Positions 1,428 to 5,711 of a stretch of 55,058 nucleotides of DNA are shown here, piece after piece; the first letter of the stretch is position 1, and each line of letters opens with the position of its first letter. The notes under the pieces are model-generated. The model ran no database searches. It was given only the letters and a program-made list of their open reading frames with translations, and was not told where the DNA came from. This stretch comes from Chloroflexota bacterium. Its GTDB lineage: Bacteria > Chloroflexota > UBA11872. The position numbers were made by a program, and so were the translations under genes. The stretch is from the NCBI GenBank assembly GCA_047516685.1, contig JAKZUJ010000062.1, forward strand, positions 1 through 55,058, read 5' to 3'.

Positions 1428-2795
1428 ATGAGGATACTCAAAAGTCACGGATTGAATAAATCAGAGGGCTATTTGGCCAACGTATGCAATAGAACTTTTT
1501 TGTCAATGTGGAGCTATCCTAATTTATACCGTGAAAATGGGAAGGAATTAGCAGATTTGATTGTCGCATTTGGTGAACATATTCTCATCTTCTCTGATAA
1601 GGACTGCGCGTATCCTACCATGCATGTCCCAGAATCAAACTGGCGCAGGTGGTTCAGAAGAGCCGTGAAAAAATCAGCTCAACAACTCTGGGGAGCAGAA
1701 AGATGGATTCGAAAGTACCCTAATCGAGTTTTCCTTGATAGAGATTGCACCGAACGTTTTCCATTCGAAATAGACGCAGCCAATGCTCACATTCACCTTA
1801 TAATGGTCGCTCATGGAGCCTCCAACGCCTGTAAGGAATTCTTTGGTGGGGGTAGCGGAAGCATGATGCTTGAGAGTCCCGTAATAGGACTAGATGCACA
1901 TACGAGACCTTTCGTGATTGGCGACCTTGAACCCACGAAGACCTTCATTCATGTCCTGGACGATACAACTCTAGACATCGTGATGGCGGCACTCGATACC
2001 ATCTCTGACTTCGTTTCGTATCTTTCTAAGAAGGAAGAACTATTCCGTTCAGACAAGGACATCTTCGTAACAGGCGAGGAGGATTTGCTACCCTTCTACA
2101 TGACAAAGATGAAGGGGGAGGAACACGATTTTGATTTCCCAGACGAATACAGTGGGGTCTTCATTCCCGAGGGACACTGGCAAGAATTCTGTGAAAACCC
2201 ACAAAGAAAAGCCCAGATTGAGGAAGACAAGATAAGTTACTCTTGGGATGAATTGATTGAAGCATTTAACACTCATGCACTTGAAGGAAGTCAATACTGG
2301 GTTGATCAGGGAGGGATAAGGTCGTCGGAGAAAGTGATGAGATTTCTCGCCAGTACAACTAGGTTTGAGAGAAGAGTATTATCAAAACAGTTCCTAGGTC
2401 TAATTGCAAAAACTAAGGTAGATCTTTGCGGCCGAAGAGTACATATACCCACTAGGGAAGGTTTGCCATTTTACGTTTTCATTGCCTTTCCCAAAAACCA
2501 CGTCTGGACTCAGGAAGATTATCGTGAACTTAGACTCAGACATTTGATGGACTGCTGCATGGTTATCAGGTCAATGTATCCGGATGCAAAAGATATTGTT
2601 GGATTAGCCACGGAATCCGGGACTGACCCAGTGTTGAGGTCTGAAGATTCTCTGCATCTCGACGGAAGGTTTTGGAATGAAGAAATACAAAAAGAGGCCG
2701 AAGAAGTGCAGCGTAGTCTCGGTATCTTTGCCAAGCAGAACTACTATAGAATACAAGAGTCTGAGTTCCCAATCGTCGCAAAGGAAACGTCGTGA
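1428..2795 (+). CDS. Low-GC hypothetical protein, putative NERD/PD-(D/E)xK-like nuclease
   Basis: 455-aa ORF from ATG 1428. Motif KELADLIVAFGEHILIFSDK...SAQQL is reminiscent of a PD-(D/E)xK core. Sampled 60-nt lines are 37-50% GC versus ~70% in a sampled dprA line. Confidence 0.6.
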   Translation: MRILKSHGLNKSEGYLANVCNRTFLSMWSYPNLYRENGKELADLIVAFGEHILIFSDKDCAYPTMHVPESNWRRWFRRAVKKSAQQLWGAERWIRKYPNRVFLDRDCTERFPFEIDAANAHIHLIMVAHGASNACKEFFGGGSGSMMLESPVIGLDAHTRPFVIGDLEPTKTFIHVLDDTTLDIVMAALDTISDFVSYLSKKEELFRSDKDIFVTGEEDLLPFYMTKMKGEEHDFDFPDEYSGVFIPEGHWQEFCENPQRKAQIEEDKISYSWDELIEAFNTHALEGSQYWVDQGGIRSSEKVMRFLASTTRFERRVLSKQFLGLIAKTKVDLCGRRVHIPTREGLPFYVFIAFPKNHVWTQEDYRELRLRHLMDCCMVIRSMYPDAKDIVGLATESGTDPVLRSEDSLHLDGRFWNEEIQKEAEEVQRSLGIFAKQNYYRIQESEFPIVAKETS

Positions 2796-3174
2796 TGTCA
2801 TACCGTTGCACCACAGGATCGTTGGACACTCCCGCCACCATTACGACACTGGACGGGACTGTCGTACATCCAATCTGCCACAACCTCTGCATCCATCTGG
2901 CGCTGTCGACCATGGCGATGCCACGTCCGATACTGGCCGGCACTAGATCAGCCTTGTCGCCCCCTGGTGTGCGAACAGATTTTCGGCCTGCGCTAGCCCT
3001 GGCCGCGTGAAGCTGCTAGCAGCCGCTATTTCCGGCTGACCGGCTACCCGCGCCCGGAGCCAGCAACTGTTTTGGTAACCAGCGAGGTATGGCCGAGGTA
3101 TCCGCCACGACCCTCAAACATATCCTGATGCACCCGCGGAATGGGTTTGCCGTCCAGAAGCCGAACGGGCGGGC

Positions 3175-3199
3175 AACCACTAAGGATTTCTTAGGAGTT
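3175..3199. repeat. 25-bp palindromic cassette 1 (AACCACTAAG-GATTT-CTTAGGAGTT)
   Basis: 8 of 10 stem positions pair, 5-nt loop. Confidence 0.75.
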
Positions 3200-3273
3200 C
3201 GGACTCAAGGCGAAGGCTCAGCTAGACAGGCAATCCAATTCACCGTTACGCCGGCAGGGAATCATCCAGAGGC

Positions 3274-3298
3274 AACCCGTGCAAAATCTGCACGGGTT
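3274..3298. repeat. 25-bp palindromic cassette 2 (AACCCGTGCA-AAATC-TGCACGGGTT)
   Basis: Perfect 10-bp stem, 5-nt loop. Confidence 0.9.
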
Positions 3299-3403
3299 CC
3301 ACCCGGGACAACCTAGCGAACAGCTGGTCTGCACAGCGCCGCTCAGGGCCGCGGCCGGGCGCGGATGTATCGTACAGGCGCCCACCGCGCAGCCCCCGAT
3401 CCC

Positions 3404-4411
3404 ATGAGCGCCGTAGCTCCGGCAACATCCCCCGGCGGCCAGGTCATCGTCTACGAGGTTGAGGGCGGCGAGGCGCGCGTCGATGTTCGCCTCGACCGGG
3501 ATACCGTCTGGCTGACCCAGCGGCAGATGGCTGACCTGTTCGAGACCTCAACCGACAACGTCAGCCTGCATCTGAGCAACATCTTCGGCTCCCAGGAGCT
3601 AGAGCGGGAGTCAACTACCGAGGATGTCTCGGTAGTTCGAACCGAGGGCAGTCGTCGGGTCCATCGGACTCTCACTCACTACAACCTGGACGCCATCATC
3701 TCCGTCGGGTACCGCGTCAATTCTCGGCAGGGCGTGCGCTTTCGCCAATGGGCCACCCGCACGCTACGCCAGCACCTGGTCCGAGGCTTCACCCTGAACC
3801 AGCGCCGGCTGGCCGAACGCGGCCTCCAGGAGGCCCGCGACACCCTGGACCTGCTGGCCAGCACGTTGCGAAACCAGGCGCTGGTGGATAGCACCGGACA
3901 GGAGGTGCTGGACCTCATCCGCGGCTACGCCGACACCTGGCGGCTGCTGCTGGAATACGACGCAGATCGGCTCGCCGCGCCGCCCGGCGGCCAGCCGTCG
4001 CGCGGTGTGCTGCGCCATGACCGCGCCGTCGGGGTCATCGCCGAGTTCAAGCGCGAACTCACGGCGCGCGGCGAAGCGTCCGCCTTCTTCGGCAATCCGC
4101 GGGGCGACGCCTTGGAAGCCATCCTCGGCAACATCGAGCAGACCATGTTCGGCCAGCCGCTCTATCCCTCACGCGAGGCAAAGGCGGCCAATCTGCTCTA
4201 TATCCTCGTCAAGGACCACCCCTTCACCGATGGCAACAAGCGCATCGGCTCCTTGTTGTTCCTGCTCTATCTGAAGCAGGAAGGCGTGGAGCACCGGCTC
4301 AATCCTCAGGCGCTGACCGCTCTGACGCTGCTCATTGCCGAGAGCGCGATGGCCAGCAAAGACCTGATGATCCGCCTCATCATCAACCTGCTGGCGGAAC
4401 CCGCCGCATGA
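3404..4411 (+). CDS. RhuM-family domain fused to Fic/Doc domain
   Basis: N-terminal TVWLTQRQMADLF and HYNLDAIISVGYRVNS...FRQWAT (RhuM); C-terminal Fic motif HPFTDGNKR. Confidence 0.92.
   Translation: MSAVAPATSPGGQVIVYEVEGGEARVDVRLDRDTVWLTQRQMADLFETSTDNVSLHLSNIFGSQELERESTTEDVSVVRTEGSRRVHRTLTHYNLDAIISVGYRVNSRQGVRFRQWATRTLRQHLVRGFTLNQRRLAERGLQEARDTLDLLASTLRNQALVDSTGQEVLDLIRGYADTWRLLLEYDADRLAAPPGGQPSRGVLRHDRAVGVIAEFKRELTARGEASAFFGNPRGDALEAILGNIEQTMFGQPLYPSREAKAANLLYILVKDHPFTDGNKRIGSLLFLLYLKQEGVEHRLNPQALTALTLLIAESAMASKDLMIRLIINLLAEPAA
3613..3637. repeat. 25-bp palindromic cassette 3 inside rhuM (AACTACCGAG-GATGT-CTCGGTAGTT)
   Basis: Perfect 10-bp stem, 5-nt loop; encodes STTEDVSVVR. Confidence 0.9.
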
Positions 4412-4544
4412 CCACGCGCACCGCAACCCAGGTTGACCGCTTCACCCGTGACTGGCTGATCAGCCTTGGCAGGTGCGCCGCCCACGGCTCGCATAGCGCG
4501 CCGCAAACCACTCGCTGACCACTCCTCCGACGCTAAGCTGAGGC

Positions 4545-5711
4545 ATGGCCAGCCGCGACACTCTGTCCCCGTTTGCGGCCGACCGACTACCTGCGCCCAC
4601 CGGGCGCACACCGGAAGACCTGGCCGCGTGGGTGGCGCTGAGTTCGGTACCCGGGCTTGGGTCGGCCACGCTGTGGAGCCTCATCCGCGCCTTCGGTGAC
4701 CTCAGTCTCGCCTGGAGCGCAAGCGCCGCCAGGCTTCGCGCGGCGGGTGTTTCGCCCGCCGTCGTCAAGGGAATCGAGAGTGCACGGCAGCAGAAGTCAG
4801 CGGACGACGCCCTGGAAGAACTGACCAAACACGACGGTCGCGCCATCGCCTGGCATGACCCGGCCTACCCCTCGCAGCTGCGCGAGATCCCCGACCCACC
4901 ACCATTGATTTATGTCAAGGGAAATCTGGACTGCGCCGACTACCAGCGCACCGTCGCCATCGTCGGCACGCGCCGCATGACCGCCTACGGCAAACAGGTC
5001 ACCGCTCAGCTGGCTGGAGTCCTGGCGCGTGCGGGGCTTTGCATCGTGAGCGGCATGGCCGCCGGTATTGACGGCGAAGCGCATAGGGCCGCGCTGGATG
5101 CCGACGGCACTACCGTCGCCTGTTGGGGCACCGGACTGCACGAGGTCTACCCACGCTCAAACCGCCGGCTCGTTCCGCGCATTCTGGAGCGCGGCGCAAT
5201 CGTCACCGAGTACCCGATCGGCATGCGCGGCCTGCCCGAGAACTTCCCTCAGCGCAATCGCATCATCAGCGGCCTGTCCCTGGCCACCATTGTGGTCGAG
5301 GCCCCGCTGGAAAGCGGCGCGTTGCACACGGCCCGCTACGCCATCGAGCAGAATCGTGAGATCCTGGCCGTCCCGGGCAGCGTCTTCGCCGCCGCCAGCC
5401 GCGGGACGAACCGCCTGATCAACCGCGGAGAGGCCCGCGCGGTCACCTCGGCCACGGATGTGCTGGAAGCCCTGCAGATCGCGGTCAGCCCGGAGCAGTT
5501 GGAAATGCCCCAGCTGGTCAAGCCCACCAGCGAGGAACGCGCCCTGCTTCGCCACCTCACCACCGATCCAATCCACATCGACGAACTGGTGCGCCTGGCC
5601 GCGCTGCCCGCGTTCCGCGTCTCGGCGCTCTTGGCCGTCATGGAGGTCAAGGGCATCGTCCGCAACCTGGGCAGCGCCCACTACGTCAACGCCCATCCCT
5701 CGGGTGACTGA
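4545..5711 (+). CDS. dprA: DNA-processing protein DprA
   Basis: YPSQLREIPDPP, AIVGTR, VSGMAAGIDGEAH, FPQRNRIISGLS, VEAPLESGAL, plus a C-terminal winged helix. Confidence 0.96.
   Translation: MASRDTLSPFAADRLPAPTGRTPEDLAAWVALSSVPGLGSATLWSLIRAFGDLSLAWSASAARLRAAGVSPAVVKGIESARQQKSADDALEELTKHDGRAIAWHDPAYPSQLREIPDPPPLIYVKGNLDCADYQRTVAIVGTRRMTAYGKQVTAQLAGVLARAGLCIVSGMAAGIDGEAHRAALDADGTTVACWGTGLHEVYPRSNRRLVPRILERGAIVTEYPIGMRGLPENFPQRNRIISGLSLATIVVEAPLESGALHTARYAIEQNREILAVPGSVFAAASRGTNRLINRGEARAVTSATDVLEALQIAVSPEQLEMPQLVKPTSEERALLRHLTTDPIHIDELVRLAALPAFRVSALLAVMEVKGIVRNLGSAHYVNAHPSGD

Follow-up and report, generated by a model that had tools for sequence, protein, structure and literature searches.

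A covarying hairpin-forming palindrome in the codons of RhuM genes and its copies upstream of a Chloroflexota rhuM-fic gene

How can a short segment of a protein-coding gene change its nucleotide sequence and its encoded peptide, and yet keep two arms complementary to each other? The question is raised by a rhuM-fic gene, and by the DNA just upstream of it, in a stretch of 55,058 nt from a Chloroflexota bacterium (GenBank assembly GCA_047516685.1, contig JAKZUJ010000062.1, positions 1 to 55,058 of the forward strand; hereafter the window). A preliminary description of this DNA had pointed to three palindromic 25-mers in one codon register and had proposed a constraint, at the DNA or RNA level, on a short and variable part of a putative DNA-binding domain. 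We show here that a 25-nt hairpin-forming palindrome underlies codons 84-91 of RhuM genes and is kept in every lineage examined. The pattern is much wider than was first seen, since it extends over many bacterial phyla with both arms changing together. The function of the palindrome is unproven. The elements of the window and the gene concerned are the following.

3175..3199, + strand: palindrome C (first element), an orphan, degraded; 8/10 paired, inside a decayed rhuM fragment
3274..3298, + strand: palindrome B (second element), an orphan; 10/10 paired, 66 nt upstream of the open reading frame (ORF) start at 3365
3613..3637, + strand: palindrome A (third element), in-gene; 10-bp stem, 5-nt loop, 10/10 paired
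3365..4411, + strand: rhuM-fic ORF, 348 codons (Pfam RhuM and Fic, PADLOC PDC-S23)

A palindrome under constraint in RhuM codons

The three elements run from AAC to GTT exactly where they had been placed, and the pairing, the common register, the spacing and the peptides could all be reproduced from the sequence. Each element begins at a third codon base, the distances from C to B (99 nt) and from B to A (339 nt) are both multiples of 3, and the three frames read ATTKDFLGVR, ATRAKSARVP and STTEDVSVVR. Palindrome A spans the third base of codon 83 to codon 91 and encodes (S)TTEDVSVV. The window has no AAC-N19-GTT site with at least 8/10 pairs other than C, B and A. The whole assembly (2,730,863 nt) holds 12 such sites, three of which are C, B and A, and the only two paired at 10/10 are B and A; five block shuffles gave per genome a mean of 3.6 sites at 8/10, 0.8 at 9/10 and none at 10/10 (∼4.4 in total). 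Folded as RNA, B reaches −21.5 kcal/mol (z −3.9, equalled by 0/200 shuffles) and A −19.4 kcal/mol (z −2.8, 1/200), and the degraded C reaches −8.9 kcal/mol (z −0.5). The ranking of B, A and C is unchanged with DNA folding parameters.

The product of the gene matches Pfam RhuM (PF13310) over residues 83-155 (E 2.6e-24, 86.3 bits versus a cut-off of 33.7) and Pfam Fic over residues 243-303 (E 4.6e-10, 40.6 bits versus a cut-off of 24), as well as the PADLOC profiles of two candidate defence genes, PDC-S23 (E 1.6e-114) and PDC-S05 (E 8e-73). The RhuM match begins at residue 83, the codon where palindrome A begins, in agreement with the earlier placement of A within an intact RhuM domain. In relatives, the gene mostly starts at an ATG corresponding to 3404, which gives 335 amino acids.

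The same palindrome was found in all 80 loci of a first set of RhuM-Fic genes, taken from many phyla and sharing 40-87% protein identity. Codon alignment mapped 75 sites in 73 of these loci, with at least 8/12 pairs in 71 sites and at least 10 in 59 (12 pairs in 11 sites, 11 in 18, 10 in 30, 9 in 8, 8 in 4 and 3-5 in 4). Three of the four low scorers carry the same palindrome shifted by ∼2 nt, and each of the seven unmapped loci has a hairpin of at least 9/10 at the expected place. In a second, independent set of metagenome and viral contigs (172 sites in 160 loci), the stem is paired at 10/10 in 99 sites, 9/10 in 63, 8/10 in 3 and 7 or fewer in 7, so that 165/172 reach at least 8/10. Moreover, the palindrome is present in 11/12 RhuM genes of Chloroflexota without a Fic domain, and in the rhuM gene of Escherichia coli ST131, where it is paired at 9/10 and starts at the third base of codon 70. 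This E. coli gene (345 codons; L281, locus 3731-4915) lies 52 nt after tRNA-Sec, in a two-gene islet between yicJ and yicL; a rhuM query matched 843 of 5426 E. coli genomes.

Within the genes of the first set, the site scores a mean of 10.05/12 pairs versus 3.19 for 67,744 other windows, only 0.01% of which reach at least 10, and in 61/73 genes every other 25-nt window of the same gene scores lower. Homologs thus show excess complementarity at this position, and both of the refuting conditions set in the preliminary description turned out in favour of its reading (for the translated search, see below). A search of Rfam 15 gave no family for it: over window positions 2500-4600 the best hit (E 0.12) was an unrelated sRNA outside the element, and four further loci (L242, L276, L054 and L085) gave no match at the gathering score. 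Targeted literature searches listed no paper on a palindrome, inverted repeat or hairpin within rhuM, and we found no described mechanism for it. The element is real and strongly selected, and it is apparently undescribed.

What kind of selection keeps it? The element consists of a 10-bp stem and a 5-nt A/T-rich loop, and pairing stops sharply outside the 25-mer: Watson-Crick complementarity is 78-100% at positions 3-12 from the centre and 13-37% outside, the next position beyond AAC/GTT being paired in 20/86 sequences. At the two innermost positions, it is no higher than base composition predicts. Among 89 distinct sequences, 94.3% of the pair cells are complementary versus 68.7% in shuffles and 14-45% in slid registers, and cells changed on both sides number 270 versus 82; none of 500 shuffles reached either value. 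Compensatory changes affecting both sides occur at nine of the ten stem pairs. Most copies begin with AAC and end with GTT, and the outer pairs are swapped in 16/89. At least 40 stem types occur across RhuM genes.

The pairs that join third codon positions are complementary in 53/53 and 52/53 unique sequences, with two to three pair types each and switching between T-A and C-G. Likewise, in 36 sites encoding x-[IV]-R-x-F-R, the synonymous codons of both arms agree in 36/36 cases at both pairs tested. As third positions and synonymous codons of the arms covary, selection on the protein is excluded as the cause. The constraint acts at the nucleic-acid level while the sequence and the peptide change by paired substitutions. 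What the preliminary description had read from three copies therefore holds, and it generalises to hundreds of genes, synonymous sites included. The palindrome is one base out of step with the codon frame, which makes the peptide 'mirror coded': V faces T, R faces R, A faces A, E faces S, and K faces F or L, as in TTEDFSVV, TVAKNATV, TIRKFRIV, TVSILETV and TCAKFARV. The rhuM palindrome is a clean natural case of overlapping codes for a protein and for a nucleic-acid structure.

Orphan palindromes and the joins at their feet

If A belongs to a living gene, where do C and B come from? The answer lies partly in the following segment.

3080..3211, + strand: decayed rhuM fragment carrying C, equivalent to RhuM residues 52-95 (tblastn)

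This segment aligns ungapped with residues 52-95 (16/44 identical; E 1e-6 against a 569-nt target, E 0.33 in a genome-wide search), so that C and A stand at homologous positions of RhuM. Part of the interval 3040-3316, which had been taken as decayed rhuM, is thus recovered by translated search, and the statement that the first two elements lie in rhuM fragments stands for C. For B, it does not follow from the window alone; in relatives, a decayed RhuM-domain start follows B. Intact genes in other phyla (L034, L038, L045 and L054) carry its stem type at the canonical site, and B is the corresponding palindrome of a dead rhuM allele, of the ATCAKFARV type. From the positional homology of C and the occurrence of the B type at canonical sites, C, B and A are one element derived from three different rhuM alleles, and C and B are orphan copies of it, left by earlier alleles at this locus.

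Palindromes of all three types recur in genomes of the same genus, again as C-B-A and often as perfect 12-1-12 palindromes, and B is found in 9/9 aligned genus loci. In these nine loci, the highest conservation of any 25-column window in the decayed region is that of C and B (identity 0.86 each versus 0.41 overall); within groups of loci the identity of the orphan windows is 0.86-0.97 versus 0.65-0.86. The frames around B in four relatives share stop codons, and stop codons common to genus members identify these fragments as an old, inert pseudogene. We therefore reject the upstream fragments as donor cassettes for gene conversion. Of the 'spent or donor cassettes' originally suggested, only the spent ones are left, as remnants of other rhuM alleles. 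In an RNA library, a contig of another organism from the same community (run X16, record 15) matches C at 3172-3204 (33 nt, 3 differences) and reads as an intact RhuM N-terminal end upstream of the match, which indicates a live C-type allele nearby in the community.

Truncated 5′ pieces of rhuM lie directly upstream of intact genes in G003, G017 and G021. Similar remains occur elsewhere. In several further loci, the main site is preceded at 250-380 nt by a single orphan. Actinomycetes and Desulfuromonadales loci have arrays of three to four different orphan hairpins, 9-107 nt apart: in the former, whose genome has no second RhuM module, four different rhuM-type hairpins lie within ∼170 nt upstream of the gene, and in the latter, hairpins at 681-705, 719-743 and 753-777 (13 and 9 nt apart, in one frame) precede a RhuM fragment beside a truncated hsdM. 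A general scan for adjacent hairpin pairs of at least 8/10 was too noisy to count arrays (186 observed versus ∼172 expected). In locus L085, a truncated copy of the hsdM N-terminal domain (306-746) lies upstream of an orphan-hairpin array and a full hsdM (2478-3956) follows rhuM-fic, which points to decay in situ of an entire, older type I system. For annotation, orphan hairpins can mark dead rhuM alleles even where no protein homology remains.

The edges of the palindromes coincide with breaks in homology. In the nine genus loci (REARRANGEMENTS), four unrelated left flanks meet C within ∼5 nt of its 5′ foot, the sequences beyond B part into two unrelated right flanks after 1-2 nt, and the homology of a third fragment begins 0-1 nt before A. 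Since these switches of flank abut C, B and A, the hairpin feet are preferred ends of illegitimate joins; a dedicated exchange system is not demonstrable.

Candidate roles of the palindrome

The position of the palindrome in the protein was considered with a structural model.

3425..3874, + strand: predicted N-terminal winged-helix-like module, residues 21-170 (AlphaFold2, mean pLDDT 81)

The model was built with 60 sequences, a model from 13 sequences (pLDDT 48) being too poor for use. It consists of two short strands, a helix-turn-helix, a long beta-hairpin, a helix and a helix of 49 residues (helices 32-38 and 43-55, strands 65-74 and 77-86, long helix 101-149, in model numbering). The residues coded by the palindrome are model residues 64-71, in the first strand of the beta-hairpin wing. 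The closest structural matches, with middling scores (Z 7.4-5.2), are DNA-binding domains of the winged-helix kind, from partition proteins, TFE-alpha, RacA and Xis, with those of partition proteins among the top ones (Z 7.4-6.7, likewise middling). Foldseek gave no match of the module in the PDB at E ≤ 0.001, a profile search of PDB sequences matched the Fic/Doc part of the rhuM-fic product and nothing else, and the Pfam Bro-N profile did not match the window protein. In this model, then, the palindrome is predicted to encode wing strand 1 of a winged-helix-like, putative DNA-binding module.

Several observations bear on the level at which the constraint acts. An RNA helix under selection is expected to favour G.U pairs. 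Among the stem mismatches of 148 unique sequences, G.U-type ones (29) are no more frequent than A.C (31) or others (27), so that there is no wobble preference. Exact reverse complements (flipped palindromes) occur as sense strands in three pairs, and orphans outside any intact ORF are still paired, as the best-conserved windows of decayed DNA. An intergenic orphan shared by L242 and L276 is paired at 10/10 in both despite four compensated pair differences, and it lies 5 nt before what we take to be a promoter motif of the Bacteroidetes type. The ∼150 nt from this orphan to the start of rhuM (L242:2824-2975, L276:2823-2975) are ∼99% identical between these two viral contigs; their coding regions are ∼73% identical. 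The lack of G.U excess, the flips, the paired orphans outside ORFs and the L242/L276 orphan indicate a constraint that is strand-symmetric and independent of translation. It is thus most likely exerted on DNA rather than on mRNA alone, although we do not weigh DNA strongly over RNA.

We therefore favour, as a tentative reading that we hold somewhat more doubtful than probable, a hairpin or cruciform formed in cis by the DNA. The winged-helix (Bro-N-like) module would recognise the palindrome by which it is partly encoded, and the rhuM gene would in this way control or mark itself. As the palindrome helps to encode its putative binder, protein and site would be inherited as one unit. The extruded or stalled hairpin would, as a by-product, be a fragile point for illegitimate joins, and this fragility would account for the truncated alleles and orphan hairpins that are stacked ahead of a live gene. 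The element has the dimer-sized dyad symmetry of a self-encoded operator (10+5+10, often 12+1+12). The stem classes also track the helix that precedes a conserved His: xCCGAG goes with S/T-x-D-N-[VI]-[GS]-L, GTTGCA with DKS[VT]ISR and ATCCGG with D[VI]RT[VI]NE. A bolder extension, quite doubtful in our view, would make RhuM and at least one Bro-N subfamily 'self-encoding recognition modules', in which the DNA of the wing strand is the hairpin or cruciform ligand of its own domain. Specificity and site would then co-evolve as an inseparable 25-nt unit, giving dozens of classes by paired substitutions; the hairpin would also be a break-and-join point driving allele turnover in defence islands, and the orphans would be kept as extra cis sites.

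A number of points weigh against the self-recognition reading. The genome of the window has no other A-type site, hence no second copy of the cognate class in a promoter, and the L054 genome has no second RhuM module (one match). The orphans belong to classes other than that of the resident gene, so that a strictly sequence-specific version leaves the paired orphans unexplained. The correlation between stem class and helix may reflect specific recognition, and it fits descent, through co-inheritance within subfamilies, equally well. Arms of 10 bp with a 5-nt spacer are short for cruciform extrusion. In the live genes of L008 and L009, a foreign N-terminal part joins a common C-terminal part 45-75 nt after the start of the hairpin, in the conserved YNLD box; this one mapped mosaic boundary of live genes is thus not at the hairpin, and it is what ordinary homologous exchange would give. 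Finally, three observations lean towards RNA. The unpaired intermediates of orphan B are T.G (in six loci, at two positions) and never C.A, as expected of a sense-strand hairpin such as RNA, in loci that are themselves related; sense-strand loops lean to A (218 versus 174 T); and contigs from RNA libraries cover 3125-3319 (C and B) and 3531-3919 (A).

The last points belong to the next explanation, in which the hairpin acts in the mRNA only. It would slow ribosomes after the helix-turn-helix part, set mRNA stability or offer a site to a double-strand-specific RNase, and so keep a toxic defence protein low. The stable RNA folds of B and A, together with an RNA-like geometry of stem and loop in which the loop is unconstrained for pairing beyond its composition, agree with it, as do the T.G intermediates. 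The RNA contigs add a weak hint, in that none of the three RNA runs covers 2000-3071, an interval covered by the DNA run; these runs are available as Logan contigs only, in which uncovered parts prove nothing and neither transcript ends nor levels can be read. However, an mRNA hairpin accounts poorly for the absence of G.U excess, for the tolerated flips of the loop and for orphans that stay paired outside ORFs, in L242 and L276 apparently upstream of a promoter. The alignment moreover has no U-tract or slippery site nearby, and no Rfam family was matched. We regard this explanation as unlikely, if still worth serious attention.

Several specific signals were considered and rejected. An intrinsic terminator is contradicted by the 3′ flank, a conserved coding stretch (V-[QR]-x-E-G) without a T run. 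For a programmed split or frameshift at the hairpin, hits to shorter proteins are too few, namely 225 (at E ≤ 1e-5, among 230 candidates) versus 7875/8000 of near full length; the 120 shorter RhuM proteins that were listed have lengths of 76-190 without a peak and are taken as fragments. Short RhuM profiles of PADLOC end near residue 100 and one starts at residue 80. A selenocysteine insertion signal, considered for the E. coli gene beside tRNA-Sec, has no in-frame TGA before the hairpin. A LexA-type or other known operator, suggested by resemblance, was likewise dropped.

A structure-specific recombination site, at which rhuM alleles or neighbouring defence cargo would be exchanged in the manner of an integron integrase and the orphans would be scars of insertion, is the less likely still. 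At no fewer than three separate points, the genus locus has junctions that coincide with the edge of a hairpin, orphans recur 250-380 nt upstream of the main site, 5′ fragments are stacked upstream of intact genes in G003, G017 and G021, and arrays with spacers of 9-107 nt would hardly be left by random deletion. Against this, no recombinase was seen beside the few loci whose flanks were inspected (in the scanned flanks of L054 and L085, genes for an ATPase, hsdR, hsdM and DUF6933 and no integrase), a position in mid-gene is odd for a cassette boundary, and a passive fragile palindrome would also cluster junctions. The live-gene boundary in the YNLD box points to ordinary homologous exchange. 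Among the mechanisms raised in the preliminary description (recombination hotspot, template switching or self-encoded operator), each is a candidate for the function; hairpin edges do coincide with illegitimate junctions, but the one mapped live-gene mosaic boundary is not at the hairpin.

Correction of quasi-palindromes is an established mutational process, and a functionless palindrome could maintain itself by intrastrand template switching or arm-to-arm correction in a protein that merely tolerates it. Perfect 12-1-12 palindromes are common in relatives, loop flips occur and orphans stay paired in a pseudogene context, all of which would fit. Palindromes are normally lost, not kept, and this explanation does not say why the same codons are used in all sampled phyla, nor why a second family has a palindrome in another register (see later in the text); we consider it very improbable. 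An origin by chance, or as a side effect of conserved amino acids and of codon usage, could appeal to the complementary codons of the conserved end residues Thr and Val, but is already refuted by the genome-wide rarity, the in-gene controls, the 36/36 synonymous covariation, the shuffles and the slid registers.

A second family, the surroundings and known systems

A hairpin of the same style occurs in a Bro-N gene beside the rhuM locus L072 (780-804). In Chloroflexota, the best hairpin of at least 8/10 lies 112-148 nt into the match in 11 of 27 Bro-N matches, and 17 of the 27 were inspected at this site. A subfamily with the motif IPSPKAEPFK carries a 25-nt palindrome in 8/8 members (L285, L302, L288, L289, L304, L295, L299 and L308; 8-10/10 paired, ∼123-148 nt into the match), in a different codon register that encodes E-L-x-T-x-C-x-Q-L; seven DinD-like Bro-N genes have no such palindrome (5-7/10). 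The hhalign comparison of RhuM with this subfamily has a probability of 39% (E 3e-4, 60 columns) and aligns the palindrome-coded peptides. We take the Bro-N palindrome as a lead to a second case of the RhuM rule. If it holds, a large family of DNA-binding proteins from phages and defence systems would come under the rule.

Type I restriction-modification loci and defence islands carry RhuM genes as some of their most frequent passengers. In published reports, RhuM-like proteins are proposed as toxin domains embedded in restriction-modification loci (PMC3710099) and are found enriched beside genes with programmed inversions (PMC9881135), and in E. coli a PDC-S05 gene with a RhuM domain is reported to lower plating ∼1000-fold for T7 and T5 (bioRxiv 10.1101/2024.09.26.614923). 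An element within the ORF that is common to many phyla gives a concrete and cheap handle on the RhuM mechanism, as the stem can be altered synonymously with the protein unchanged, and it offers an explanation for the stacked truncated rhuM alleles at these loci.

In the window, dprA (4545-5711) follows rhuM-fic. Upstream of the rhuM remnants, an A+T-rich ORF of 468 codons (1389-2795) in this genome of 66% G+C matches phrog_18195 only (function unknown, E 1.4e-63), with no Pfam, NCBIfam or PADLOC match; it looks like recently acquired cargo. Positions 400-1400 contain overlapping broken frames, with a peptide stretch that we take to be typical of type I HsdS subunits, perhaps from a decayed hsdS; Pfam gave no match for the four window ORFs at 438-716, 472-792, 713-1426 and 2-148. 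In L072, a Cas7 gene fragment (1-591, E 6.7e-56) lies beside the Bro-N and rhuM genes, and this locus is therefore part of a mixed defence island. Some rhuM loci are flanked by repeated G+C-rich hairpins (L094:829-1117, 2165-2271 and 3157-3260, L023:296, L044:738 and L149:6161-6221), all of one type with a C/T-rich arm, a short loop and a G/A-rich arm, spaced by 79-101 nt; they look like repetitive extragenic palindromes (REP) and unrelated to the rhuM palindrome.

The closest parallels of the rhuM palindrome are binding sites inside genes. These reportedly include the partition site within parB/spo0J, the second lac operator in lacZ and the internal gal operator. Like them, the palindrome is a dyad-symmetric site in the range of ∼16-25 bp inside an ORF, and in the parB case the gene is that of the site's own binder. 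Those sites have a constant sequence, whereas the rhuM palindrome varies by paired changes over its many stem types; all 10 of its positions are complementary, it always occupies the same wing-strand codons, and its binding is only putative. Hairpins in coding regions that act as RNA, such as recoding signals and the autogenous translational operators of phages, are likewise stable stem-loops within an ORF with covariation and possibly bound by their own product. Unlike these, the rhuM site has no adjacent stop codon or slippery site and no preference for G.U, and its copies persist outside ORFs.

The attC sites of integrons share with the rhuM element a structure that is kept while the sequence varies. 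They are single-strand hairpins at the boundaries of exchangeable units, in arrays, and most rhuM copies also begin with AAC and end with GTT. However, attC sites measure 57-141 nt and are bulged, with paired outer boxes, whereas the rhuM element has 25 nt and a continuous 10-bp stem without bulges; its pairing runs inward from AAC/GTT, not outward, and tolerates swapped outer pairs. Moreover, attC sites follow promoterless cassettes in an array next to the integrase, whereas the rhuM site lies in mid-ORF, at codons 83-91, and the scanned flanks of L054 and L085 contain no integrase. Quasi-palindromes that are hotspots of template switching, and the palindromes at deletion endpoints, resemble the rhuM case in mutually corrected arms, flipped loops and endpoints at the hairpin foot; such hotspots are transient, whereas the rhuM element is held at one homologous site across phyla. 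Finally, REP sequences and bacterial interspersed mosaic elements are also short palindromes able to stand in small arrays. They are many per genome, extragenic and alike, whereas the rhuM type is present in only three copies in 2.73 Mb, at one locus and all different.

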